Counted from the first letter of the whole stretch, positions 2,779 through 41,918 are shown. The stretch is 43,490 nt of DNA, filler included, from an uncultured virus (IMG/VR IMGVR_UViG_2576861727_000003) (2 parts of one record of this genome joined end to end with filler, not necessarily neighbours in it); one strand, 5' to 3'. The notes: a model not told the origin generated them from the letters alone. Made by a program: numbers and translations.

Positions 2779-3282
2779 ATGACAGACCATGAATTTTTTG
2801 AGAAGTGCGACAACCTTGAAAGGCGCATTAAGCAGCTTGAAGCGATAATAAATAAGATTGAGACTGATAGTGAGCCTGAACTTGAAAGAGCAACAAGAGA
2901 TGATTATTATTATAGCATCATACTAGACGATGCTTGCTATGTAAAAAATCGTCTCGAACAATATTATGCGGTAGATGATAGATGTTATAATCTGCTAAAC
3001 TATTTTCGTACCAAGAAACGTGCGCAAGAAGTGGCAGACAAGATAAAATTTCTGCTAAAATTAGAGCGATTTTATGATATTTATTGCCCTGTGTACAACC
3101 CTGATTGGAATGTCCATGACAATAAATATTTTATAATGTACGATAAGAGTCGTAATAGCTATATTGTTGCTCGTAATCAAGAAGCTAGAACCGTTGCAAA
3201 CGTATATTTCCCCACAGAAGAAATCGCCCAGAAAGTTTGCGACAGATTAAATAAGGAGCGTGAAGAACATGATAATTCTTAA
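2779..3282 (+). CDS. Phage hypothetical protein, paralog 2
   Basis: RBS GGAGG; same motifs as 2209-2775. Confidence 0.8.
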   Translation: MTDHEFFEKCDNLERRIKQLEAIINKIETDSEPELERATRDDYYYSIILDDACYVKNRLEQYYAVDDRCYNLLNYFRTKKRAQEVADKIKFLLKLERFYDIYCPVYNPDWNVHDNKYFIMYDKSRNSYIVARNQEARTVANVYFPTEEIAQKVCDRLNKEREEHDNS

Positions 3283-3745
3283 AGGTGACTTGCTTGAAAC
3301 TCCGTTTGAGATTATTGCACATCAGGTCAATTGTCAAGGCAAAATGGCTTCGGGTGTAGCAAAACAGATAAGAAAGAAATTCCCTTGGGCATACTCTGAT
3401 TATATGAGTGCCTTAGAACAACACGGTGCTGATTTCATGTTCGGAAAGTCTCAAATTATTAATCAGAATGGACACACAATATTCAATATATTTGGTCAAT
3501 ATAACTATGGTTACGATGGTAAACAATACACTTCTTATGAAGACTTGGAAAGTGGATTTGTCGAAGCCATTAATAACTATAGAAAAAATATTGATATAGA
3601 TATAAGCACACAAATTACAGTAACTATACCTTATAAAATAGGTTGCGACCGCGGCGGTGGCGATTGGTCTATTGTTAAGGCAATCCTTGAGAGCATCGAA
3701 AAACTTTTTAATGTGGTTTTTGTAGCGTATAAACTTGAACAATAA
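3269..3745 (+). CDS. Macrodomain protein (Poa1p/DarG-like ADP-ribose processing)
   Basis: KGDLL, IAHQVNCQGKMASGVAKQI, NIFGQ, IPYKIGCDRGGGDW motifs; ATG at 3269 after AAGGAG. Confidence 0.88.
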   Translation: MIILKGDLLETPFEIIAHQVNCQGKMASGVAKQIRKKFPWAYSDYMSALEQHGADFMFGKSQIINQNGHTIFNIFGQYNYGYDGKQYTSYEDLESGFVEAINNYRKNIDIDISTQITVTIPYKIGCDRGGGDWSIVKAILESIEKLFNVVFVAYKLEQ

Positions 3746-4968: not shown

Positions 4969-5166
4969 ATGAAAATGACAAAAGCACAATTCAAAAAACG
5001 CTGGGATAGCAATGAAGAAGGTGGCGGTATAACTTTTGATGACATAGCTCAGTGTGCTGTTGACTGGGGACTGGTGCAGAACCCTAGAATACACAGGATT
5101 GATATAATTGCTAATATGGTTACAAAAGCAGCGGGGTGCGAGTATGTTTATCCAGTTCAGAGGTGA
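4969..5166 (+). CDS. Phage hypothetical protein
   Basis: RBS GAGGAGG, ATG 4969. Confidence 0.65.
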   Translation: MKMTKAQFKKRWDSNEEGGGITFDDIAQCAVDWGLVQNPRIHRIDIIANMVTKAAGCEYVYPVQR

Positions 5167-5171
5167 TAACG

Positions 5172-5594
5172 ATGCGAGAAATACTATTTCGAGGTAAGGG
5201 AATTAGAAATGGACGTTGGTATTATGGGAGTCTTAGCGGAAATAAAACTAAATTTATTCATGAATACGAAACCCGTATACACGCGCCAATACGTCCCGAA
5301 ACACTCGGTCAATATACAGGATTAACTGACAAGAACGGAATTAGGATTTTTGAGGGCGACATATTATCTTTCGACTATTACCCATATACTTCTGACGGAA
5401 ATCAGAACTATTATGCCGAAATCGTATGGGTTGATGAAAATGCCGCATTTTGCTTATATACATTCAAGAATCCAACGTCAAAAGTTTGCGGGGTGTCCGA
5501 GGGCTGTGATTATATAGAAGATTTTGCATCTGATGTAGGGGAAGTTATTGGTAACATTTATGATAATCCTGAGTTGTTAGGTGGTGGTGAATGA
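5172..5594 (+). CDS. YopX-family phage protein
   Basis: MREILFRGK, WYYG, GQYTGLTDKNGIRIFEGDIL, EVIGNIYDNPELL. Confidence 0.92.
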   Translation: MREILFRGKGIRNGRWYYGSLSGNKTKFIHEYETRIHAPIRPETLGQYTGLTDKNGIRIFEGDILSFDYYPYTSDGNQNYYAEIVWVDENAAFCLYTFKNPTSKVCGVSEGCDYIEDFASDVGEVIGNIYDNPELLGGGE

Positions 5595-5941
5595 TGACTA
5601 ATCATGAGTTTATAAAACTTTCCGAACAACCCATCAACACACTCATTAGTAATCTATATGATTATGGTTGTGATGCTCGTTACAAGGGTCAATGGGAAGC
5701 TACCTTATGGGAAATAGAACGTAGATTGACCTTGCTATATACGCCAAAAAAGAAATGTCCTAAGATCAGACTTGAACATAAACTTGTTGAAGAAAGCAAT
5801 GGTGACATCTTTGAGGATATTATCAGTGATAGCCTTGCTCATGGATGGTGTATTGTAGACACAAATGCAAAATTCACTCCAAACCAAGGATTGATTTTTA
5901 CTGCCCGTTTGGAAAGAATAGTTGAGGTGAACGATGAATGA
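5591..5941 (+). CDS. Phage hypothetical protein
   Basis: ATGA overlaps at both ends. Confidence 0.65.
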   Translation: MMTNHEFIKLSEQPINTLISNLYDYGCDARYKGQWEATLWEIERRLTLLYTPKKKCPKIRLEHKLVEESNGDIFEDIISDSLAHGWCIVDTNAKFTPNQGLIFTARLERIVEVNDE

Positions 5942-6201
5942 AACTAATGTACAAGTTAAAGCAAAAGGACTCTAATCTCCAGGGATATAGTTACAGACAG
6001 ATAACTGCAATACCTATATGTCCTATGTGTTATAAAGAACTCGGTCATATGCTTACTAGCGATACAAAGTTCTGTCCATTCTGCGGAGCACAGATAGAAT
6101 CAAATAGCATTATATCTGTATCTCTAAATGCGTTTGAGTTCAACGGAGAGTATTTGCTCAAACATAATGATATAGCAATCGAAAGAGACAAAGGTTGGTG
6201 A
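5938..6201 (+). CDS. Zinc-ribbon protein
   Basis: CPMC...FCPFCG. Confidence 0.7.
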   Translation: MKLMYKLKQKDSNLQGYSYRQITAIPICPMCYKELGHMLTSDTKFCPFCGAQIESNSIISVSLNAFEFNGEYLLKHNDIAIERDKGW

Positions 6202-6343
6202 CGATGATGAATAGTAGAATGAGAAAAATCGACAAGATTTTAAGTACTATTCAACTATATTCATACTTGCTACCTACGGTTAGGATAGGTAATTATATAA
6301 TGGACTTTAGAGAAAAGTATACTCTCTATAGTTACAGACGGCG

Positions 6344-6832
6344 GTGATAAAAATGGATTATATAAACTTATTGGCAAACAAAATGAGTCTTACAGAGGAC
6401 GACTTCGCGGAAGAGCAAAAGCTAAGGAATAAAGTTATATCATGTATAATTCCATCATTCTTAAATAATATAGAGGTTTTTAAATTTTTCGAAAGTCCTT
6501 TTAATGAAAAAATTTGTGATGCACTTATTAACAAGTATGCTGATAGCCCTTATCGGTTAGAACAGGCAATACAGAACTATCACGAATTCTATCTATCAAT
6601 GTGGTTTCATCAAGCTATCGAGGTAGCATTAAATCAATTGCGTGATGTTAAAGACGTTGACATAGGGGAGCCTATTAATTGTGCGTCTAATTACGGCGAA
6701 TTTGTAGAGCTTCCAGATATAACCGACGATATTAGTAAGTATTACGATAAGCTTTTGGATAAATTTAATTCAACTCCTTTATATTCACCAGTTCATCACA
6801 CATTATTGATGGAGGCGAAGTTTAATGATTAA
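6344..6832 (+). CDS. Phage hypothetical protein (start may be ATG 6353)
   Basis: ~160-aa ORF in the co-oriented array. Confidence 0.65.
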   Translation: MIKMDYINLLANKMSLTEDDFAEEQKLRNKVISCIIPSFLNNIEVFKFFESPFNEKICDALINKYADSPYRLEQAIQNYHEFYLSMWFHQAIEVALNQLRDVKDVDIGEPINCASNYGEFVELPDITDDISKYYDKLLDKFNSTPLYSPVHHTLLMEAKFND

Positions 6833-10246: not shown

Positions 10247-10687
10247 ATGTTTATACCGAGACGACCAAGCGATTTTGAATTTCCTAAACCCAAGAAACGT
10301 CCGCCAATGCCAGAGGTAAAACCGCCTAAAGAAAATATAGATTTCATAAATAGTGAAAAATTATATTTTGATAACGAGGTTTATATTAAAGATGATGACG
10401 CTCTGAAATTTTATTATTGTGAAAGTGAGGATGATTACTTCTTAGGTCAAAGAATTGATAATTTTTATTACGCTCGATATGATAAAGGTTGCGGAGAGTT
10501 TGTGTGGTGCATGTCTAAACATCTACCTTGGGGTGAACGGGTTGCAGATAAAAACACTCTTTGGAAGGAACATACATATCCGAGTGAACCAATTGAAATA
10601 GGTTTTAATAGGTGGTTAAGGGGGTTTATACATAAGTATTATCCTGAGAACGAACACACACCTGGAATAACATATATGTGGAAATAG
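10247..10687 (+). CDS. Phage hypothetical protein
   Basis: RBS AGGAGG; Pro-rich N-terminus. Confidence 0.7.
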   Translation: MFIPRRPSDFEFPKPKKRPPMPEVKPPKENIDFINSEKLYFDNEVYIKDDDALKFYYCESEDDYFLGQRIDNFYYARYDKGCGEFVWCMSKHLPWGERVADKNTLWKEHTYPSEPIEIGFNRWLRGFIHKYYPENEHTPGITYMWK

Positions 10688-10714
10688 TGGAAATTGACTA
10701 AGGAGATAGATTAG

Positions 10715-10975
10715 ATGAAGAACAGTGAGGTTTTCTATATTGTTACCAATAGCGAGGGTAAATATCTAGCAATCGACACCGAAGATAACTTCGTATGGCA
10801 AGAAGAGTTTCATCCTTCTAATAAGTTAATGGCTTGGTTCACCGCGCATCAGGCAAAGGTTTTTATAGTGGAAATCTTTGGAAATATCTATGCAGATTAC
10901 TACCGTGTAGAGAAAGTTACTTATGATGCCTCTTCAGGCGAAGTATTAATGGAGGTTGTAGTAGATAGGAATTAA
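10715..10975 (+). CDS. Phage hypothetical protein
   Basis: RBS AAGGAG. Confidence 0.65.
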   Translation: MKNSEVFYIVTNSEGKYLAIDTEDNFVWQEEFHPSNKLMAWFTAHQAKVFIVEIFGNIYADYYRVEKVTYDASSGEVLMEVVVDRN

Positions 10976-11009
10976 TTGTGTAATTAATTGTACTTTCAGA
11001 TTTTGAGTG

Positions 11010-11038
11010 TTGACAAACTCGAAAGAAGGTGATATAAT
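11010..11038 (+). promoter_or_regulatory. Consensus sigma-A promoter
   Basis: TTGACA (11010-15), 17 bp, TATAAT (11033-38), with extended -10 TG. Confidence 0.85.
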
Positions 11039-11052
11039 ATTTGGCAGAAATA

Positions 11053-11066
11053 AGAACAAGCGTTCG
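11053..11066. promoter_or_regulatory. LexA/DinR (SOS, Cheo) box
   Basis: AGAACAAGCGTTCG matches the Firmicutes consensus CGAACRNRYGTTCG at 13 of 14 positions, just downstream of the -10. Confidence 0.75.
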
Positions 11067-11120
11067 ACAAAAGAAAGAGGGTGCCCCAATGTTTTGAGCA
11101 TATCATAGCAACTTGTAAGC

Positions 11121-11150
11121 GTCTGAAACGAAGTTATTTCGGGCTTTTTT
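11121..11150 (+). terminator. Possible intrinsic terminator/attenuator
   Basis: GTCTGAAA...TTTCGGGC stem (two G-U pairs) followed by T6. Confidence 0.45.
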
Positions 11151-11214
11151 GTGAAAATCATGCCGAAATCTATGCCCCATAATGGAGCATAAATTTTACA
11201 AAGGAGAGATGTGT

Positions 11215-11481
11215 ATGAGTAACGCAGAAAAGAATCATGAGATGACAGTAGAGGAGTTTGTAGCTGAGCTGAAAAGACTCAAGGAACAGAACGAAGATTT
11301 GCTTGATAAAGCAACAGAAAAGCTAGCTGACCTAGAAGATAATGAGCCAGATAGCGATGGTGTAAAGTATGAAAGGTGGCAGGATAAATGTGATGCACAA
11401 CAGTGCCTTATTGAAGCTATTGAGGAAAGGCTTGATAAGATAAACTCGTATCTTGAAGAGTACGATACGAGTGAGGTGTGA
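11215..11481 (+). CDS. Acidic coiled-coil protein, first gene after the SOS promoter
   Basis: RBS AAGGAG, ATG 11215; E/D-rich helical sequence. Confidence 0.7.
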   Translation: MSNAEKNHEMTVEEFVAELKRLKEQNEDLLDKATEKLADLEDNEPDSDGVKYERWQDKCDAQQCLIEAIEERLDKINSYLEEYDTSEV

Positions 11482-11485
11482 TGTA

Positions 11486-11815
11486 ATGTTCGGACTTATT
11501 GCTTGTATTATCTTGCTGATTATTATTAGTTCGAAATACAACAACACCAATGAAAAAGCGAGAGAACGAGCGCATTTTTTGTACGATAATACTGATATTT
11601 GGAGAGAACAAGAACTATTTCACAAATTTCTTTACCAGAGAAAAAGAGTTGATGGCTCGTCTATTCCATTAGATTATTCTTACGTTTCTATATGGAATGA
11701 AGTAGACAAACAGCTTAAAAAAGAGGGTTTAAGACTTAGCCCGTCAACGTGTAATTTGTCGAATTATAAGTTTGATGATAAAGGATATGTCATTACCCCT
11801 TATAAGAAATGGTAA
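11486..11815 (+). CDS. Protein with N-terminal membrane anchor
   Basis: RBS GAGGTG, ATG 11486, MFGLIACIILLIII. Confidence 0.65.
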   Translation: MFGLIACIILLIIISSKYNNTNEKARERAHFLYDNTDIWREQELFHKFLYQRKRVDGSSIPLDYSYVSIWNEVDKQLKKEGLRLSPSTCNLSNYKFDDKGYVITPYKKW

Positions 11816-11843
11816 TTTGTGTAGTTCAAAGGAGAGATAACAT

Positions 11844-12215
11844 TTGCTTATTAATTCGATTTCCGTAAGTAATCCATTTGGGGCAATAAGAAAAATTAGG
11901 GAATATAGACAGCATGTAAGATTTCCTATCAAATGGAAGTTAATAAATGATAATGACCAGCATACGTTAAGAGAAATGTTTGGGGTTGGCGACGGTCAGC
12001 CCCATCTCTCTCTGATAGTCCCAATAGTAAATGAGTCGATTATGTTTTCTGAATGCAGATTACATAATTCACCATGCGGTATAAACCCCTCTTTTAATGC
12101 TATTCGCCGCGTTGATGAATATGTATTGTTCCATGAAAAACTTCCAGATTACTGCGGATTTAAAGTGGTTTTAACAGGAGAAGAAAAGGTCAATTTAATG
12201 AATTTGCTTTACTAA
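11844..12215 (+). CDS. Hypothetical protein
   Basis: RBS AAGGAG, TTG start. Confidence 0.65.
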   Translation: MLINSISVSNPFGAIRKIREYRQHVRFPIKWKLINDNDQHTLREMFGVGDGQPHLSLIVPIVNESIMFSECRLHNSPCGINPSFNAIRRVDEYVLFHEKLPDYCGFKVVLTGEEKVNLMNLLY

Positions 12216-12228
12216 AGGAGTTGATATA

Positions 12229-12650
12229 ATGAGACCAATATAACTACGTTTTATACGGGAGAAATAATTCTTGTAGATTTTTGTAACAGTATAGGTCATC
12301 AACAAAAAGGTGTACGTCCTGCGCTTATTGTTTCAAATAATATTGGGAACGCAAAAAGCACAATGCTTGAAGTACTTCCGATAACAACGAAGCGTAGCGA
12401 TTCAACACTTCCAACTCACGTTACTATAAATAATGATGAAGTAAATGGTTTAAAGTATGTTTCAACAATTGAAGCAGAGGGTAAAACACCAATTAATAAG
12501 TTTCAGGTAAGAAGAAAATTAGGGAAACTTACTGATGCGCAACTTGAAGCTGTAGCGGAAGCAATGGTATACGCAACCCCAATTGTGTTAAAAGCCTTTA
12601 ATAAAGGGGTTCAAGAGACTCAACTCTTTCAGAAATTATATAACACATAA
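12229..12650 (+). pseudogene. mazF: PemK/MazF-family toxin-like endoribonuclease; the RBS-linked ATG is out of frame (apparent 1-bp deletion near the start)
   Basis: The frame from 12240 reads ITTFYTGEIILVDFCNSIGHQQKGVRPALIVSNNIGNAKSTMLEVLPITTK (GHxQxGxRPALIVSN, PITT), but ATG 12229 after AAGGAG reads MRPI-stop. Confidence 0.8.
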
Positions 12651-12654
12651 TTTA

Positions 12655-12683
12655 TTGACAAATAAGTTAGTATATGATACAAT
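12655..12683 (+). promoter_or_regulatory. Sigma-A promoter of the repressor-like gene
   Basis: TTGACA, 17 bp, TACAAT, with extended -10 TG. Confidence 0.8.
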
Positions 12684-12700
12684 GAAAAAGAGGTGAGTAT

Positions 12701-13678
12701 ATGAAGGTCGATTATGATTACTTCCCAAGCACAATAAACAATTGTTACAATGCGAAACAAAAAGCCAAATACTTACAATATGTAAATACAAAAATTAAAC
12801 ACCCGCGGTCATTTCACGCGTATATTTCTCCATTTTTACACTTTGCTAAATATGAAGAATATTACGATATTGATATTTTAGATATGTCTAAAAATAAAAT
12901 CGCGGCTATATTTGAAATGGTTATTATTAGTCGAGCGATGTATGTAAATTATTGCTCCGTCTTTAATGATTATTATAATTATTATCATAAGGACTTTAGT
13001 AAGGTTCGCCCGCCCTTTGAAGAATTAGAAATCACCAATAATATGGAAAACCGTTATTTAAAGGATTTTAATACTTTGTTTGAGTTTGCCAACAAAGCTT
13101 TCCCTTTATCAGAGGGTTCTCTTGATGAATTTCGTAGGCTTGTAATTGTACTATGTTTTCTTGGATTTAAGAAATCCGAAATTAAATATATAAAAAAATC
13201 AGGAGTTGATTTTATTCATAATACAATTTCTTTAGGCGAGCATATAGTTGAGAACGTTCCAGAAGAATGCATGAGACTATGTAAGCATTGTATTAATATG
13301 CAAGAGGTATATCTAAATAATACAAGTCAGTTACCGTATGATAAACGAACGTATTTACCACTTTATAATAATGACTATCTGATTAGAGCAAGGTTTGAAG
13401 ACGAAAAGCTACAAAATAACGTAGTGTTAGATGGTTGGTTAGGTCGCATTATTGTAGCCTTTAACAAAGCGAATAATGGATATTATTCATATAGTACTAT
13501 TAGAGCTTCAGGATTATATGCGTGGTTATACCAAATGGAACAATCTGGAGTTTTCGACCCAAATCAGACACATAAAAAATTAGGCGAGATTTATCAGCAA
13601 TTTTTTAAATCCAAAGGCTCCGTAGATAATCTCTCGAATAATTATAAAATTTGGAAACAAATATTCTACGGGTATTAA
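12701..13678 (+). CDS. Degenerate tyrosine-recombinase-fold protein, likely MrpR/YopR-type phage master repressor
   Basis: 325 aa; integrase-like segments LCFLGFKKSEI..IKK..VDF (catalytic R replaced by K) and STIRASG (His of HxxR absent); own promoter and terminator. Confidence 0.6.
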   Translation: MKVDYDYFPSTINNCYNAKQKAKYLQYVNTKIKHPRSFHAYISPFLHFAKYEEYYDIDILDMSKNKIAAIFEMVIISRAMYVNYCSVFNDYYNYYHKDFSKVRPPFEELEITNNMENRYLKDFNTLFEFANKAFPLSEGSLDEFRRLVIVLCFLGFKKSEIKYIKKSGVDFIHNTISLGEHIVENVPEECMRLCKHCINMQEVYLNNTSQLPYDKRTYLPLYNNDYLIRARFEDEKLQNNVVLDGWLGRIIVAFNKANNGYYSYSTIRASGLYAWLYQMEQSGVFDPNQTHKKLGEIYQQFFKSKGSVDNLSNNYKIWKQIFYGY

Positions 13679-13690
13679 ATCACATAGGTT

Positions 13691-13727
13691 CAGCGAGATG
13701 CTATTTAGTGTCTCGCTGTTTTTGTTT
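13691..13727 (+). terminator. Rho-independent terminator
   Basis: CAGCGAGATGCTA / TAGTGTCTCGCTG stem + TTTTTGTTT. Confidence 0.85.
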
Positions 13728-13752
13728 ATTCAGAAAAATAGGAGGAAACAAA

Positions 13753-14355
13753 ATGGAAAGTTGGTTTACAGAACTTAGTGCAATTGATGTAAGCGAGCAC
13801 ACAAGTGAAAAGAATGGTCTTACATATCTTAGCTGGATGTGGGCATGGGCGGAACTCAAGAAAAGATATCCTCTTTCATACTCCACCGTTCATGAAACTC
13901 CCGAGGGTATGCTAGTATGGCGTGACCCTATTGGCGGTCATGTTAAAACTTCTATTACGATAGTATGGAAAGACGGAGAAGAGTTTAAAGAACACACTGT
14001 TACCGAATATCTTCCTTGTATGGATTATAAAAACAAAGCAGTCCCTTACGATAATATCGACTGTATGCTTGTTAATAAGACAATACAGAGAAGTCTCACA
14101 AAATGCATAGCAAGACTTGGGCTTGGCGGATATATTTATGCAAAAGAAGATTTGCCCGAAGCTGTTAATGAACTTAATGACCTTAACCAGCTTAACTTTG
14201 ACCTCGCATCAAAGATTGCTAGGAAGAGTGAAGACGCAAAGAAACAAGTTGGAGAAGTAGTTAGAAAGTTTGTTGCTAGTGGTAATCCTAAAGCAATAAA
14301 GTCAATTGATGTCGCACAGCAGCTTAATGCTGAACTCATAAAGATAAACAAGTAA
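13753..14355 (+). CDS. DUF1071/Sak-type single-strand annealing recombinase
   Basis: LTYLSWMWAW, LPCMDYKNKA, NKTIQRSLTKCIARLGLGGYIYAKED; RBS AGGAGG, ATG 13753. Confidence 0.85.
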   Translation: MESWFTELSAIDVSEHTSEKNGLTYLSWMWAWAELKKRYPLSYSTVHETPEGMLVWRDPIGGHVKTSITIVWKDGEEFKEHTVTEYLPCMDYKNKAVPYDNIDCMLVNKTIQRSLTKCIARLGLGGYIYAKEDLPEAVNELNDLNQLNFDLASKIARKSEDAKKQVGEVVRKFVASGNPKAIKSIDVAQQLNAELIKINK

Positions 14356-22233: not shown

Positions 22234-22863
22234 ATAAATATAAATACACAGACGAAGAACAAAAGAAAATAATTAATTCTATGGTGGTTATCGTAGACAG
22301 TCGAGAAAAGAAGAATGACCACATAACCGCGTATTTTGACAAACATAGGATTAAGTATGAAAGGAGAACAATGACAGCGGGAGACTACAGCTTTTACATT
22401 GAAGCAAATGAAGAGCTGTCTATTCCGCGCCCGATTTATTTCGACAAGAGTATATTCATCGAGAGAAAAGCAAATCTTGAAGAATTGTCTTTAAATTTAA
22501 CATCGGGGAGAACGCGGTTTGAAGAGGAATTTTCTTTGAACCCAAAGACGAAAAAATATCTCCTTATTGAAAATGCCAATTACTATGATTTAGTTAATGG
22601 CAATTACGACAGTAAATATAACTCTAAGGCGTACTTAGGAAGCCTTCATAGCTTTAACCATAAGTACAATTTAGAGATTGTATTTATGCCGAATAATCAG
22701 TTTTCGGCTATTTACATATTGGGCGTATTCCAATATTACNNNNNNNNNNNNNNNNNNNNNNNNNNNNNNNNNNNNNNNNNNNNTTAATTAATTAANNNNN
22801 NNNNNNNNNNNNNNNNNNNNNNNNNNNNNNNNNNNNNNNTACTTAAAGAGCTTGATTAAATAA
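22227..22863 (+). CDS. ERCC4-domain nuclease (spans the assembly gap; probable C-terminus YLKSLIK after the gap)
   Basis: VDSREK, GDYS, IERKANLEEL, LLIE; TTG 22227 after AAGGTG. Confidence 0.85.
22740..22839. other. Assembly gap with artificial all-frame stop linker
   Basis: 100-base block: 44 N, TTAATTAATTAA (22784-22795), 44 N. Confidence 0.97.
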
Positions 22864-33127: not shown

Positions 33128-36100
33128 GTGATGGCAATGATAAATAGTGTCTGTAAATGTGATGGTTCAATCACCGAGTTTGATGATAAGAAGATTTATG
33201 CGGCGATCTCGTATGCTTATTCGGATGTATACGGAGAGTTGTCTGAGGAAAAAGAGGAAGAAATTGAGCAAATAACAGACGATGTTGTTGATACAATTAA
33301 TTTCTTTAATGATACTATTCATGTTGAAACTATACAGGATATTATTGAGAATAGGCTAATGGAAAGCAGTAGAAAGGATGTCGCCAGAGCATTCATTCTA
33401 TATCGTAATGAGAGAACAAGAGTGAGAGAAAGAAACAGTCGGATTATTCAGGCTGTAATGAATAGAGCAAATCCCAACACTCGAAACGACAGGTCAAATG
33501 CAAATGTTAATGAACGGTCTTTTTCTGGCAGAGAGAAAGAGGCTTCTGCAACGATAGGAAAGATGATTGCTTTAGATTACGGCGGTTTATCAGAAGAAGT
33601 TGCAAAAGCCCACAAGGATATGTTGGTGTATCAGCACGACCTCGAAAAAGCCATTTATGGTGTACATAACTGCCTAAACTTAAACTTTCAAGAAATCTTT
33701 ACTCATGGGTTCAAGACAAGAAACGGAGATGTTAGACCGCCTACATCATTTAGTACAGCCTGTCAGTTATACGCCGTAGCTTTTCAGTGTCAAAGTCAAG
33801 TTCAGTTCGGCGGGGTAGGAAGTATCCACACTGATATTGATTTAGCGCCTTTTGTTAAACTTAGTTTCTATAAGCATTATGCAGACGGATGTAAATATAT
33901 AGGTCATTTAGATAAAGACAATATTGATAAGAAAATTTCATACGCAAAACAGCATTCACTTTCTATAGAAGACGATTATTTCAAACAGGATAATGAGATA
34001 TATATTTATGCTATTGATATGCTTAATAAAGAAGGATTGCAGTCTGCACAAGGTTTATATCATAACTTGAACACACTTGAATCCAGACAGGGTTCTCAGG
34101 TTCCATTTACCTCAATTAATTTTGGCAGAGATAAAAGCGCCGAAGGCAGAAAAGTCAGCGAATGGTTGATGGCGGCAAGCCTTGATGGTATTGGAAAGCA
34201 TCATTTAACGAGTATATTTCCTATTGGCATCTTCCAATATAAAGAGGGTTGTAACGCCAATCCTGGAGATAAAAACTATGACCTTAAACAACTAGCTCTT
34301 AAATCCATGAGTAAACGTATTTATCCTAACTGGTGCAATTGCAACTACTCACAGGCTCACGAAGATGAAAATAACCCCGATACATATTTTGCAACTATGG
34401 GAGCATTAGCGGGGCATGAGCACTTGTATATTAAAAAAGGAAATGGTACACCTATTGATATGTCTATTAAGGAGTTCTTTGAAACCATAAAAACCAAAGA
34501 GGATATTAAAGGACGAGCTATGCAATTGTATTACAACAAATCGCCATTAGATATTCCTACCGATATAAATTGGAGACACAAACAGATCAAATCAAATTCT
34601 GGAATAAAAGCTCTATCAGGTGTATATAAAATCACTTATATCCCACAAGACGTATCTTACATAGGCTCATCAAAAAATATTCAACAAAGAGTTCGTGACC
34701 ATAAAAAAGACATTCGTCATACAGGCGGACTTGATTGTGGTTTATTCTTTGGCGATGCTAATATAGATAATTACTCTTTTGAAGTGATTGAGTATACGGA
34801 CGATTATAAAGATGCGGAGAAAAAGTATATCCAACTCATTCCCAACGCTAATTACAAGGGAACATCATCAAAATTTTATAAGAACGTCGGCATCACAAAA
34901 GGTAGAGGCAGCGATACTCGTCCTAATATTGTAATGAATCCCAATATTCCCCAAGAGTATATCTCGTTAGAGGATTTTGATTACAAGGTATTAGATAGGA
35001 ATAATCAGTGGGTAAAAATTAAACATATCTTCAAAAACGATAAAATGAACACTCCTTTAATGATGCACATTACTTACCGTGAAAATGATAAAGTTTATAC
35101 TTTGTGTTGTACAGAAGACCATCCGTTGTGGAACGGTGAACGTTTTGTGCGAGCTGATAATTTTAAGGTTGGTGATTATCTGTATAGGGCTGATGAATTA
35201 GCTCTTGAAGTTGTAGAGATTAAATACCACACCGATAGGGTTGATAGTTATGATATCGGCACTGAAACAGGTAGTTTCATTGGTAGCGATATTATAATGC
35301 ACAATTGTCGTACAATGGTAGGGTATGATAGAAACGGTCTTGGATACATAAGACAAGGTAGAGGCAATAATGTCCCCAATACAATTATTCTTCCTAATCT
35401 TGGTATTAGGTATGGAATATGTTTGGGTGATAGAACAGAGCCCGACCTTGATGGTTTCTGGAATGCTTTTGAAGACACATTAAAACTTACCGAGAAGGGA
35501 TTACTTGAGAGATTTGCCATTATGGTACAGCAGAAGCCAACGGCAGCTCCCTTTATGTATCAGAATAATACAATACAAGACGCAAGAAAGTGTAAAGATA
35601 ACGTTTATGAATCGTTAAAACACAATACGCTTGCTATTGGATACATCGGCATAGCTGAGATGTGTCAGGCATTATTTGGAGAAAATCATGTACATAGTAA
35701 AAGAGCTCACGATTTTGCCTTGTCTGTTGTTAAGAGAATATATGATTATGCAATAGAAGCATCTGAAAGAAATGGATTGAATTTTTCATGCTACGCGACT
35801 CCCGCCGAATCCCTTTGTCGTACTGCTTTAGTAAGTCTTAGGGAACAGTACGGAATCATAGATGGCGTAACTTCTCATGAATATTTAACGAATTCACACC
35901 ATGTTCCAGTATGGGAAAAAGTAAGTATATTTGAAAAACTTGAATGTGAAGCACCGTTCTGTAAATATCCTACTGGTGGTAACATTACATATGTTGAACT
36001 CGATAGCACGTTTGTAAAGAACACTAAGGCAGTTGAGTCCATTATAGATTATGCATTTAAAGTGTTGGATATTCCATATTTAGCATTTAATTTCCCAATA

Positions 36101-36277
36101 GATAATTGTTTAGACTGTGGTTATCAAGGAGAATTTAACGACTGTTGCCCTGAATGCGGAAGCAAAAACATTCAACAGTTAAGACGAGTAACAGGATATC
36201 TGACAACTGATTGGCATAACTTCAACGATGGTAAGCAGTCAGAAGTACAGGAGAGAGTAAAACATGAGATATGCTAA
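33128..36277 (+). CDS. nrdD: Anaerobic (class III) ribonucleoside-triphosphate reductase with ATP-cone, containing an intein
   Basis: ATP-cone N-terminus, QVPFTSINFG, ATMG|CRT, YATPAESLC, YLTNSHH, CxxC..CxxC, RRVTGYL glycyl-radical motif. Confidence 0.96.
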   Translation: MMAMINSVCKCDGSITEFDDKKIYAAISYAYSDVYGELSEEKEEEIEQITDDVVDTINFFNDTIHVETIQDIIENRLMESSRKDVARAFILYRNERTRVRERNSRIIQAVMNRANPNTRNDRSNANVNERSFSGREKEASATIGKMIALDYGGLSEEVAKAHKDMLVYQHDLEKAIYGVHNCLNLNFQEIFTHGFKTRNGDVRPPTSFSTACQLYAVAFQCQSQVQFGGVGSIHTDIDLAPFVKLSFYKHYADGCKYIGHLDKDNIDKKISYAKQHSLSIEDDYFKQDNEIYIYAIDMLNKEGLQSAQGLYHNLNTLESRQGSQVPFTSINFGRDKSAEGRKVSEWLMAASLDGIGKHHLTSIFPIGIFQYKEGCNANPGDKNYDLKQLALKSMSKRIYPNWCNCNYSQAHEDENNPDTYFATMGALAGHEHLYIKKGNGTPIDMSIKEFFETIKTKEDIKGRAMQLYYNKSPLDIPTDINWRHKQIKSNSGIKALSGVYKITYIPQDVSYIGSSKNIQQRVRDHKKDIRHTGGLDCGLFFGDANIDNYSFEVIEYTDDYKDAEKKYIQLIPNANYKGTSSKFYKNVGITKGRGSDTRPNIVMNPNIPQEYISLEDFDYKVLDRNNQWVKIKHIFKNDKMNTPLMMHITYRENDKVYTLCCTEDHPLWNGERFVRADNFKVGDYLYRADELALEVVEIKYHTDRVDSYDIGTETGSFIGSDIIMHNCRTMVGYDRNGLGYIRQGRGNNVPNTIILPNLGIRYGICLGDRTEPDLDGFWNAFEDTLKLTEKGLLERFAIMVQQKPTAAPFMYQNNTIQDARKCKDNVYESLKHNTLAIGYIGIAEMCQALFGENHVHSKRAHDFALSVVKRIYDYAIEASERNGLNFSCYATPAESLCRTALVSLREQYGIIDGVTSHEYLTNSHHVPVWEKVSIFEKLECEAPFCKYPTGGNITYVELDSTFVKNTKAVESIIDYAFKVLDIPYLAFNFPIDNCLDCGYQGEFNDCCPECGSKNIQQLRRVTGYLTTDWHNFNDGKQSEVQERVKHEIC
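34403..35305 (+). mobile_element. Intein (301 aa) in nrdD; Ala at position 1; contains a GIY-YIG domain
   Basis: Interrupts ATMG/CRT; block A ALAGHEHLYI, block B CTEDHPLW, blocks F/G SYDIGTETGSFIGSDIIMHN followed by Cys+1. Confidence 0.92.
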
Positions 36278-40470: not shown

Positions 40471-40508
40471 GGCGTACCGTCGGATTCGGCGGTATGCCTA
40501 TTTTTTTT
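40471..40508 (+). terminator. Rho-independent terminator
   Basis: GGCGTACCGTCG / CGGCGGTATGCC stem + T8. Confidence 0.85.
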
Positions 40509-40520
40509 ACCTTTAGAAAG

Positions 40521-40532
40521 GAACAAATGTTC
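40521..40532. promoter_or_regulatory. LexA/SOS-box core overlapping the RBS and abutting the start codon
   Basis: GAAC-AAAT-GTTC directly before ATG 40533. Confidence 0.5.
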
Positions 40533-40757
40533 ATGAAAAAAGAAATAAGAATCCCAGCATATAAGCGCATATGGTGTAAAATAAGATACTATCAGCAACT
40601 AAATGATATAACAAATGAAACCTTAGCAAAATATCTAAATATAAGTGTTAGAACACTGTCTACGTATGATAAAGATGCTAAGAACCTGACGCTTGGCAGT
40701 ATTGATGGCTTTTTATATAATACTGGGCTTAGCTTAGAACAACTTAACACATTATAG
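40533..40757 (+). CDS. XRE-family helix-turn-helix regulator
   Basis: ITNETLAKYLNISVRTLSTYDK; RBS AGAAAGGA. Confidence 0.8.
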   Translation: MKKEIRIPAYKRIWCKIRYYQQLNDITNETLAKYLNISVRTLSTYDKDAKNLTLGSIDGFLYNTGLSLEQLNTL

Positions 40758-40763
40758 TCTACA

Positions 40764-40792
40764 TTGACAATATATAATGAAAGTGATATACT
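40764..40792 (+). promoter_or_regulatory. Sigma-A promoter of the integrase
   Basis: TTGACA, 17 bp, TATACT, with extended -10 TG. Confidence 0.75.
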
Positions 40793-40841
40793 GATTACAT
40801 AGTTTGTGTGTTCGCTTTCGTAATAGAAAGTGGGTAATAAT

Positions 40842-41918
40842 ATGAAAGCAAATAAAACAAAAAGCGGCAATTATCGCGTACAGTTATCAGCGGGCTATGA
40901 CGCAAACGGCAAAAGAATAATCAAGTCGTTTACCGCTCCAGAAGCGTGGCAAGCTATAAAAATGGCGGAAGACTACAAGAAAGGACTGGTGGTAGAACCA
41001 AAGAAAATGACGGTACGTGACGCATTTGAATACTATATCGCCTCCAGAAATAACATTCTTTCACCATCTACGATTAAAGGTTACAACACAATAAAGAACT
41101 CGCGGCTTCAAGCTATTAGAGACTTCCAAATTGATAACCTTAAAACATCAGATGTTCAAATGGCGGTAAATATTGACGCGCAAACATTGTCTCGTAAGTC
41201 GATTAAATCCGCTGTGGCGTTACTCAAAAGCGCATTGTCGTTACAAGAGATAAATATTAATATTGATAAGATTACACTTCCCGCACAAAGACCGAATAAG
41301 AAAGACATTCCACCAGTAGAGAAAGTATTAAATGTTATAATAGGCTCTGACATAGAAATACCGTGTCTGCTGGCAATGTGGTTATCTTTACGCATCAGCG
41401 AAGTGAGAGGATTAAAATTTAAAGATATCTCTGACGACGGTAAGTATATTTCGATAAGACGAACAAAGTTAGCCTTAAATAACGGCGATGTAGTTAGAGA
41501 AATAAACAAGACCGAGGAAAGCACTAGAACTAATCTTTTACCTCAATACCTATACAAAAAGATTATAATACTTCCTCATTCGTCATCAGAGGATTTCATT
41601 GTAAATATTAATTATAGTTCGCTCAGAAGCCGCTTCAAAAACTTAATGAGTAAAAATGGATTGGACATCACGTTCCATTCTCTTCGCCACGAGTTTGCGA
41701 CAACATTAAACGACCTCGGTATTCCATCGGAGTACATTCAAAAGCTCGGTGGGTGGTCAACAGATAACGTTATGAAGTCCGTTTATACTCATACAACAAA
41801 AAGTAAAGAAGAAACTTATCAACAAAATATTAATGATTTCTTTATGGCATTAATAGAGAAAAATGAAAAGGTCGATAATGACCTTTTGAAAAAAGTGACA
41901 GTAAAAAGTGACAGTTAA
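40842..41918 (+). CDS. Phage tyrosine integrase
   Basis: N-terminal arm-binding-like region, LRISEVRGL, FHSLRH, LGGWS, SVYTH; next to tRNA. Confidence 0.95.
   Translation: MKANKTKSGNYRVQLSAGYDANGKRIIKSFTAPEAWQAIKMAEDYKKGLVVEPKKMTVRDAFEYYIASRNNILSPSTIKGYNTIKNSRLQAIRDFQIDNLKTSDVQMAVNIDAQTLSRKSIKSAVALLKSALSLQEININIDKITLPAQRPNKKDIPPVEKVLNVIIGSDIEIPCLLAMWLSLRISEVRGLKFKDISDDGKYISIRRTKLALNNGDVVREINKTEESTRTNLLPQYLYKKIIILPHSSSEDFIVNINYSSLRSRFKNLMSKNGLDITFHSLRHEFATTLNDLGIPSEYIQKLGGWSTDNVMKSVYTHTTKSKEETYQQNINDFFMALIEKNEKVDNDLLKKVTVKSDS
41890..41915. repeat. Tandem 13-bp direct repeat, candidate integrase arm-type sites
   Basis: AAAAAGTGACAGT x2 at the integrase 3' end. Confidence 0.6.

Follow-up and report, generated by a model that had tools for sequence, protein, structure and literature searches.

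A candidate lysogeny-control switch with a SroF/MrpR-type recombinase-fold repressor and a linked MazF-family gene in an uncultured phage

The closest described counterparts of the locus analyzed here are the lysogeny switches of the Bacillus phages SPbeta and phi3T. Their repressor, SroF (MrpR, YopR), binds DNA as a monomer, and Sar, a small acidic DNA-mimicking dimer encoded by a LexA-boxed gene one open reading frame (ORF) away from sroF, inactivates it in phi3T/SPbeta (bioRxiv 10.1101/2025.11.27.690993). MrpR is reported to lack the catalytic residues of recombinases (PMC10516654). Since a SroF-type repressor has no autocleavage domain, some antirepressor is needed for SOS induction (bioRxiv 10.1101/2025.11.27.690993). 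The host toxin–antitoxin system also takes part: active MazF favors phi3T lysogeny, and phage proteins encoded in or near the repressor operon bind MazE or MazF (PMC10769878), a form of arbitrium control that involves phi3T_93/YopM, AimX, and YosL (PMC10769878; Cui 2022 in PMC10516654). In SPbeta, the MazE-binding YopM is encoded alongside the repressor within the yopMNOPQR operon. The literature thus confirms the statement of the initial annotation that host MazEF feeds into the SPbeta/phi3T decision. Here we describe a related arrangement at positions 10970–13718 of a DNA stretch from an uncultured virus (IMG/VR IMGVR_UViG_2576861727_000003); the whole stretch of 43,490 nucleotides (nt), two parts of one record joined with filler, is referred to as the window.

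We give about an even chance to the interpretation that this region is the lysogeny-control switch of a large SPbeta-like temperate phage of gut anaerobes, combining a SroF-type repressor, a LexA-controlled antirepressor candidate, and a toxin–antitoxin-like pair. The window resembles the SroF–Sar switch of SPbeta and phi3T (PMC10516654; bioRxiv 10.1101/2025.11.27.690993) in three respects: (i) a recombinase-fold repressor of about 325 amino acids (aa), apparently without conserved catalytic arginines, (ii) a LexA/SOS box on the promoter of a small acidic protein less than 2 kb from the repressor gene, and (iii) a large genome with YopX-domain and PolIII-alpha-type genes. In contrast to the Bacillus phages, the repressor is only about 16% identical to the solved SroF and YopR chains, no similarity of the acidic protein to the sequences of Sar or YopT can be detected, and the hosts are probably gut anaerobes instead of Bacillus; arbitrium genes and sroA–E homologues were not seen in the window, although no dedicated search for them was made. 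As in the host MazE–MazF control of phi3T, a MazF-family endoribonuclease is tied, by function or by physical linkage, to an operon with a SroF-type repressor. Unlike in that system, the phage carries the MazF gene itself, directly upstream of the repressor gene and behind an unrelated partner, the gene is disrupted, and no similarity to MazE, AimX, or YosL was found. The features of the region are as follows.

10970–10979 and 10982–10991, no strand: direct repeat, two exact AATTAATTGT copies 12 bp apart, just upstream of the P1 −35 hexamer
11010–11038, + strand: promoter P1, consensus sigma-A promoter TTGACA-17-TGnTATAAT (12/12 plus TG extension)
11054–11065, no strand: LexA (Cheo-type) box GAACAAGCGTTC, 15 bp downstream of the P1 −10 hexamer
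11121–11150, + strand: weak terminator-like hairpin with T run (8 pairs, 3 of them GC) in the 150-nt leader
11215–11481, + strand: ORF for an 88-aa acidic protein (isoelectric point, pI, 4.2; net charge −16), the first gene behind the LexA box
11486–11815, + strand: ORF for a 109-aa small protein with a hydrophobic N-terminal segment, as read from the sequence
11844–12215, + strand: ORF for a 123-aa protein of a new family (ORF11844), directly upstream of MazF
12225–12650, + strand: MazF/PemK-family frame, 141 open codons, severed from its start
12229–12243, + strand: MazF start codon with Shine–Dalgarno sequence AAGGAG; ATG AGA CCA ATA TAA reads MRPI-stop
12655–12683, + strand: promoter P2, TTGACA-17-TGnTACAAT (11/12 plus TG), the repressor gene's own promoter
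12701–13678, + strand: gene for a 325-aa SroF/MrpR/YopR-family recombinase-fold repressor, assigned by profile and fold
13691–13718, + strand: intrinsic terminator (12-bp stem, 6 GC pairs, T run) that closes the module

The assignment of the 325-aa protein is carried by profile and fold comparisons. Taken alone, it scores 19.8 bits against PF22822 (MrpR_N_CB), below the cut-off of 27, and searches of the PDB with the single sequence and with a profile of its close homologues (A1) produced no match. Ten close homologues are 49–98% identical to it, and eight of them carry a precomputed PF22823 (MrpR_C_cat) annotation. The A1 profile finds 256 representatives at E ≤ 0.001, and one profile iteration leads to 76 full-length family members, from which profile A2 was built. 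Over its positions 1–315, A2 matches the PDB entries 9rd5, 8bj6, 8bjv, and 8a0a (YopR, MrpR, phi3T SroF) with E-values of 2.3e-27 to 9.1e-26; the sequence link of the 325-aa protein to these repressors is transitive, via A2. PF22822 is detected in 73 of the 76 members (E ≤ 0.01), with 33.7 bits in the orthologue from locus L003, and a local scan finds PF22823 in one of the 76.

Structure prediction leads to the same family. An AlphaFold (AF2) model built with A2 reached a predicted local distance difference test (pLDDT) score of 93 and a predicted template modeling (pTM) score of 0.85; with a shallow alignment the pLDDT was 70.5. The first Foldseek match is the phi3T SroF–DNA complex (E 4.6e-10, TM 0.65), and ranks 1–7 are occupied by SroF–DNA, SroF–Sar, YopR, and MrpR (E 4.6e-10 to 3.8e-7), true recombinases (Xer, Cre, Int) appearing only from E 5.6e-5. 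With residues assigned by motif, the position of the box I G-x-R arginine is K157 in the window protein and K, T, S, D, N, or P across the family. The H-x-x-R-H region, likewise assigned by motif, reads IRASG, with only S270 and G271 conserved, and a near-invariant Y315 remains. On this assignment, the family would lack the box I arginine and HxxRH, much as MrpR is reported to have lost its catalytic residues. The original suggestion of a degenerate, MrpR-like recombinase-fold gene is therefore supported by matches of profile and fold over the full length. The gp8 'integrase' encoded beside MazF in the Thomasclavelia phage TR-TP2 was also considered as an MrpR relative and was rejected: the A2 hidden Markov model (HMM) gave no match, and PF00589 matched with E 1.4e-35.

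By eye, promoter-like hexamers equivalent to P2 precede the repressor gene in L001 and L003, and a related GC-rich hairpin with a T run follows it in L001 and L002. Among promoters of the window, P2 is second by score, tied with those at 40764 and 42319. A search of the window for an operator-like repeat family found no repeated motif of 16 nt or longer, and A1-based locus scans of genome and viral contigs found no locus.

The relatives compared here are metagenome contigs or loci (L001, L002, L003, and L026–L031), supplemented by contigs from other studies (runs X1 and X3). Seven viral loci were anchored on MazF. Six of them have an MrpR-like gene 35 nt to 1.3 kb downstream (A2 HMM, E 1e-55 to 1e-66), and the seventh ends inside MazF. 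Because L027–L030 are near-identical, the linkage of MazF and repressor represents three lineages in addition to the window and L001; the latter contains the 3' end of MazF, a promoter, a 57%-identical repressor gene, and a terminator. The full order, namely acidic ORF, membrane ORF, ORF11844-like gene, MazF, repressor, GIY-YIG gene, and Sak, is observed in L026. Contigs of equal size among the longest ones provide an indirect indication: size 13768 is common to MazF, repressor, and ORF11844 homologues, sizes 101520, 37982, and 7993 to MazF and repressor, and sizes 1694 and 2925 to MazF and ORF11844. Since the order of an ORF11844-family ORF, MazF, and repressor recurs across five lineages, the module is real. 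The conserved five-gene order that had been expected held in part: MazF and repressor are linked in related large phages, but L003, L027, and the Sak-anchored loci speak against an invariant five-gene operon, and the genes fall into two sub-modules.

Locus L002 is collinear with the window from the upstream genes and P1 with its LexA box to the ORFs of the acidic and membrane proteins. The stretch corresponding to window positions 11930–13498 is missing from it, and with this stretch the whole of MazF, the greater part of ORF11844, and repressor codons 1–265; past the deletion, L002 continues with the terminator, Sak, and replication genes. At its junction, GATTTCCTAT is joined to the last 60 repressor codons, a deletion of 1,569 bp; in L001, the first 11 Sak codons are joined to the 3' part of ORF11844. 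The two breakpoints (L001:1185–1240 and L002:5715–5730) lie at GATTTCCTAT in ORF11844 (window ~11919–11930), no more than about 10 bp apart, and could reflect chimeric assembly, a hot spot, or the junction of a circle or a duplication. Among other local variations, GIY-YIG/NUMOD genes separate the repressor gene from Sak in L003 and in L026, and L027 has a HicA-like small toxin ORF (2739–2935, by eye) upstream of the acidic ORF and a 417-aa ORF (5462–6715) with a DGQHR-like motif (by eye) that PADLOC did not match. If these L027 names are right, the neighborhood collects toxin and defense-type genes.

Promoter P1 is the best-scoring of six strong + strand promoters in the 43.5 kb, and the LexA box lies close behind it. 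The motif GAAC-N4-GTTC occurs at three sites in the window against 0.34 expected, a count reached by none of 100 shuffles; of these, the copy at 11054 is the only promoter-associated one, the others lying inside a coding sequence (37412) and over a start codon (40521). The box fits both LexA consensus forms given in PMC4234289, Bacillus GAACN4GTTC and clostridial GAACnnnnGTTC/T. L002 has the same P1 −35 hexamer, extended −10, and 16-mer AAGAACAAGCGTTCGA as the window; it differs in the spacer, in the repeats upstream, and in a large part of the leader. In run X1, the arms of the box are kept, and its sole change is a spacer base (C>T at 11061). The annotated LexA-boxed sigma-A promoter is accordingly present and is conserved in L002 and X1.

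With 15 matches at one mismatch or fewer against 13.3 expected, the AATTAATTGT motif shows no enrichment in the window; the repeats are not kept in L002 and may have no function. The leader block TTTCGGGCTT(T/C)TTTG is kept in L002, and the leader folds no better than shuffled sequences (z 0.28 and 0.90). In L026, GAACTTCGGTTT and GAACTTCGTTTT abut the −35 hexamer of a promoter reading into the membrane ORF, the ORF11844-like gene, and MazF, and both match clostridial search motifs of PMC4234289. The same region (L026:3885–3985) contains three direct GTGAACTTCG repeats upstream of and overlapping the promoter, the first two of which extend to LexA-type boxes; alternatively, these repeats could be operators of the phage's own repressor. 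On these sequence comparisons, LexA control is well supported both in the window phage and in L002 and is plausible in L026; it is no general trait.

The first gene behind the box encodes the 88-aa acidic protein, with ribosome-binding site AAAGGAGAG located 7 nt before its ATG and its position 1.2 kb upstream of the repressor gene. In size, acidity, LexA box, and closeness to the repressor gene it corresponds to what would be expected of a Sar-like gene, and it has a 72%-identical homologue in L002. No match was found in Pfam or the PDB, ESM Atlas gave nothing above threshold, and a viral-contig scan with this ORF gave no match. By analogy, it is the best candidate for a Sar-like antirepressor; alternatively, it is a candidate MazF inhibitor. 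The acidic ORF of L027 was left out of the alignment, being just 23% identical to that of the window. Homologues of the 109-aa ORF that follows occupy the equivalent place in L002 (phmmer E 1e-52), L003 (3.6e-10), and L026 (8.4e-6), and neither Pfam nor PHROG assigns this ORF to a family.

The next gene, ORF11844, obtained no convincing score in Pfam, PHROG, or PADLOC, has no relative in the PDB, and gave only sub-threshold leads in ESM Atlas. It has five close homologues. A profile of the family (A7) detects, among 4,927 ORFs, the ORF directly upstream of MazF in L031, L026, and L003 (E 3e-6, 9e-5, and 1e-3); the corresponding ORF of L027 was not detected as a homologue. The distance to the MazF start is 13 nt in the window, 14 in L003, 0 in L026, and 4 in L031, and proteins of this type are 123–138 aa long and near neutral (pI 7.8–8.7). 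A conserved small gene immediately upstream of a toxin gene is characteristic of toxin–antitoxin operons, and this arrangement is found in the window, L003, L026, and L031. ORF11844 represents a new family and, judging from its gene position, a putative antitoxin.

The frame downstream is a true homologue of PemK/MazF, as the initial annotation had proposed (PF02452, E 2.8e-21, 76.2 bits against a cut-off of 23.1; phrog_1936, E 6.9e-23). Among solved chains, B. subtilis EndoA/YdcE is nearest to it (E 1.8e-10), and equivalents of Arg25 and Thr48 are present, T48 of MazF being named as catalytic (PMC10769878). It shares with type II MazEF/PemIK systems and the PHROG 1936 'MazF-like growth inhibitor' the PemK_toxin domain, both of these residues, and a small upstream gene at 0–14 nt. 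It differs from them in that the upstream partner has no AbrB/SpoVT fold, complete ribbon-helix-helix fold, or other antitoxin family match, and in that the toxin frame is disrupted here. The domain frame resumes from ACT at 12243, 2 nt out of register with the start codon, inside ATATAA. It has no ATG, GTG, or TTG before 12363, and an ATG at 12363 would yield 95 aa without the arginine. Most of the 36 clusters of homologues are intact, with 134–145 aa and a start like M(x)YYTGDIILVDF. A 95-aa form (P0173), 99% identical to that of the window, occurs on three contigs, and further truncated clusters (P0164 and P0186) have 119 aa at 86% identity and 95 aa at 77% identity.

Contigs from two other studies have no indel at the disruption site. 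A 37,399-bp contig of run X1 differs from the window by 52 substitutions and a sole indel at 13749, and a contig of run X3 (record 8) covers 12073–12284 with no gaps; the disruption is the same in both. Therefore, the disruption is real and fixed in the lineage and is no assembly error. The 5' part is still open and consensus-like, which suggests that it is recent, and the MazF gene of the window is probably a recent pseudogene. Since MazF is cut off from its start codon in this lineage, the switch here must work without it, and the proposal that the phage uses its own MazF in the switch is not supported for the window itself.

A natural model combines these elements. P2, the repressor gene, and its terminator would form the lysogeny maintenance unit, the repressor silencing the prophage by monomeric operator binding, as SroF does. 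P1 with the LexA box, placed over the start region of the strongest promoter of the window, would serve as the SOS input: DNA damage would remove host LexA and so switch on the small membrane protein together with the 88-aa acidic one, the latter most likely acting as a functional analogue of Sar that strips the repressor from DNA. ORF11844 and MazF would be a toxin–antitoxin-like pair carried by the clade instead of relying on host MazEF, and the clade MazF may play a lysogeny-biasing or abortive role, as host MazF does for phi3T. The genes and their order are observed; the interactions between their products and the direction of the MazF effect are drawn by analogy with phi3T. LexA-controlled antirepressors are known in other temperate phages (bioRxiv 10.1101/2025.11.27.690993). 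There too, the SOS signal reaches a non-cleavable repressor via a LexA-repressed small protein, the repressor fold and the candidate antirepressor of the window being unrelated to theirs. One such protein is Tum of coliphage 186.

Several observations weigh against this model. In Bacillus phages, sar follows sroF at a distance of one ORF, whereas here the gene of the candidate antirepressor precedes that of the repressor. Neither the acidic ORF nor ORF11844 matches the PDB chains of Sar (9rgl) or YopT (2dlb) at E ≤ 10, which is a weak negative because Sar homologues share less than 20% identity (bioRxiv 10.1101/2025.11.27.690993). The acidic ORF also has no detectable sequence relatives in L003, L026, and L027, where only analogous small acidic ORFs are located nearby, and L002 has no repressor gene yet retains the LexA promoter and the acidic ORF. 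The leader of P1 contains a terminator-like hairpin. Farther downstream, the scan for terminators returned none from the acidic ORF to P2, so read-through from P1 would also raise repressor mRNA. LexA input as a general trait of the module is not upheld: no LexA-type box is located near the module in L027–L030, the L031 site is within a coding sequence, and in L003 GAACAAATGTTT lies about 58 bp upstream of the promoter −35 hexamer; by our own estimate, GAAC-N4-GTTY is expected by chance about once per 10–20 kb. Among relatives anchored on Sak, the module is present in one of 17 viral loci and in none of three genome loci. Finally, a MazF gene adjoins a true integrase in TR-TP2, so a lysogeny module can contain MazF as nothing more than a moron.

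The last observation belongs to the chief rival of the switch model, which we regard as possible, though clearly less probable. According to it, the repressor is correctly identified, but ORF11844 and MazF are an independent moron, a prophage-borne toxin–antitoxin or abortive-infection cassette placed next to the repressor gene since lysogens express both, and the acidic and membrane proteins serve SOS-induced exclusion, envelope functions, or lysis timing, with no antirepressor present. MazF-like genes are indeed common in gut phages (79 phage records match, and the PHROG class is morons), and the gene is dispensable, being disrupted in the window, truncated in P0164 and P0186, and deleted in L002. 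In L003, the ORF11844-like/MazF pair has its own promoter behind a terminator-like hairpin (by eye); in L027, the unrelated 417-aa gene splits MazF from the repressor gene, and the HicA-like ORF is located nearby. A free cassette does not readily account, however, for the position of MazF upstream of an MrpR-like gene in all six MazF-anchored clade relatives with downstream DNA, with repressors down to ~20–25% identity. Moreover, the sole experimentally studied SroF system is coupled to MazF activity (PMC10769878), and the need of a SroF-type repressor for an antirepressor, noted above, also argues against a module that contains none.

Another scenario is that LexA gates phage transcription directly, P1 being an SOS-released early promoter that starts the lytic program while the MrpR-like protein acts on other promoters. 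Phage GIL01 is said to be an example of such gating. The rank of P1 among the few strong + strand promoters and the overlap of the box with the transcription start region are in line with this scenario, and direct control of phage lytic genes by LexA is a known alternative (bioRxiv 10.1101/2025.11.27.690993). Nevertheless, we consider it quite improbable: the strong terminator at 13691–13718 separates the unit from the replication genes, the genes behind P1 encode small proteins without a replication or regulatory domain, and several relatives have no LexA boxes. Least of all do we favor the view that the 325-aa protein is a decayed integrase or another DNA-binding factor in a perhaps virulent phage, with the module a set of unrelated early genes, since the low Pfam score and ~16% identity of the single protein, the existence of L002 without the gene, and the lack of matches in phage records are outweighed by profile and fold comparisons that place SroF, YopR, and MrpR above every true recombinase, by the gene's own consensus promoter and terminator, and by an integrase-family gene at 40830–41918 that suggests a temperate lifestyle.

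The switch model can be extended to a joint reading in which a phage-borne MazF with a new antitoxin belongs to a SroF-type switch; taken as a whole, this extension is unlikely. Its first part is that the SPbeta-type decision, in a clade of large phages infecting gut anaerobes, would hang on a phage-borne, not a host-borrowed, endoribonuclease. The second is that antirepression of a recombinase-fold repressor by DNA mimicry would have found another solution, unrelated to the first, in a LexA-controlled protein that is helical and highly acidic. The third concerns the repeated N-terminal disruption of MazF, of which three truncated forms are seen, one of them with its 95 C-terminal codons open and 77% conserved: toxin dose could be tuned by loss or by recoding at ATATAA, and this would not be simple decay.

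The window as a whole is a one-directional phage gene array with a GC content of 34–40%. The sequence features listed in the initial annotation were all recovered at their positions, and its remark that no classic divergent cI–cro pair is visible holds as well, every long ORF being located on the + strand. A run of N at 22740–22839, flanked by TTAATTAATT and AATTAATTAA, shows that the window is partly masked or unresolved. Searches of the region and the repressor by blastn and tblastn against 50,697 phage records gave no match. The name 'clostridial' for this phage goes beyond the pointers to its host, which are gut or rumen metagenomes and two Clostridia-labeled contigs of metagenome-assembled genomes with a related Sak gene only. 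An Rfam scan of 10600–14000 returned no family, the sole match being a chance long non-coding RNA (E 0.48), and PADLOC had no family for any of 11 proteins tested. In run X16, a bovine-gut metatranscriptome, three short contigs fall on the module (11715–11882, 12379–12541, and 13074–13277) with 0–3 differences; they are a weak hint of transcription, DNA carry-over being possible.

Additional observations concern other parts of the window. The integrase-family gene mentioned above encodes 362 aa (PF00589, E 1.2e-17). It is preceded, in the region 40494–41918, by an 87-aa ORF that is HTH-like (helix-turn-helix) by eye and without a Pfam match, with GAAC-N4-GTTC over its ribosome-binding site and start, and by a promoter TTGACA-17-TATACT; the region may be a true integration module or a yopO/yopP-like pair. 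The early zone of small ORFs encodes a Macro-domain protein (3260–3745) and a YopX-domain protein (5136–5594), YopX being an SPbeta-family domain. The anaerobic ribonucleotide reductase NrdD (1049 aa, 33128–36277) has a GIY-YIG domain at residues 498–570, which suggests an inserted homing endonuclease or intein-like element.

In summary, the kind of switch is already known, and the 325-aa repressor is a new member of it. What is new is that such a repressor gene is physically linked to a phage-borne MazF whose partner belongs to no known family, and that an acidic LexA-controlled candidate lies upstream. Our literature search found SroF/MrpR/YopR repressors described for Bacillus SPbeta-family phages only, although preprint supplements may list wider SroF/Sar homologues; for phage-encoded MazF it found only annotation mentions and no description of this module. 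Should the proposed mode of action be correct, switches built on a recombinase-fold repressor would be widespread among the large phages that infect anaerobes of gut and rumen. Phages with a MazF of their own, and those in which it is lost or deleted, would then provide a natural comparison set for the connection of MazF with lysogeny in phi3T, and a novel family of antitoxins could be put to the test, along with a candidate DNA-mimic antirepressor that is also new.

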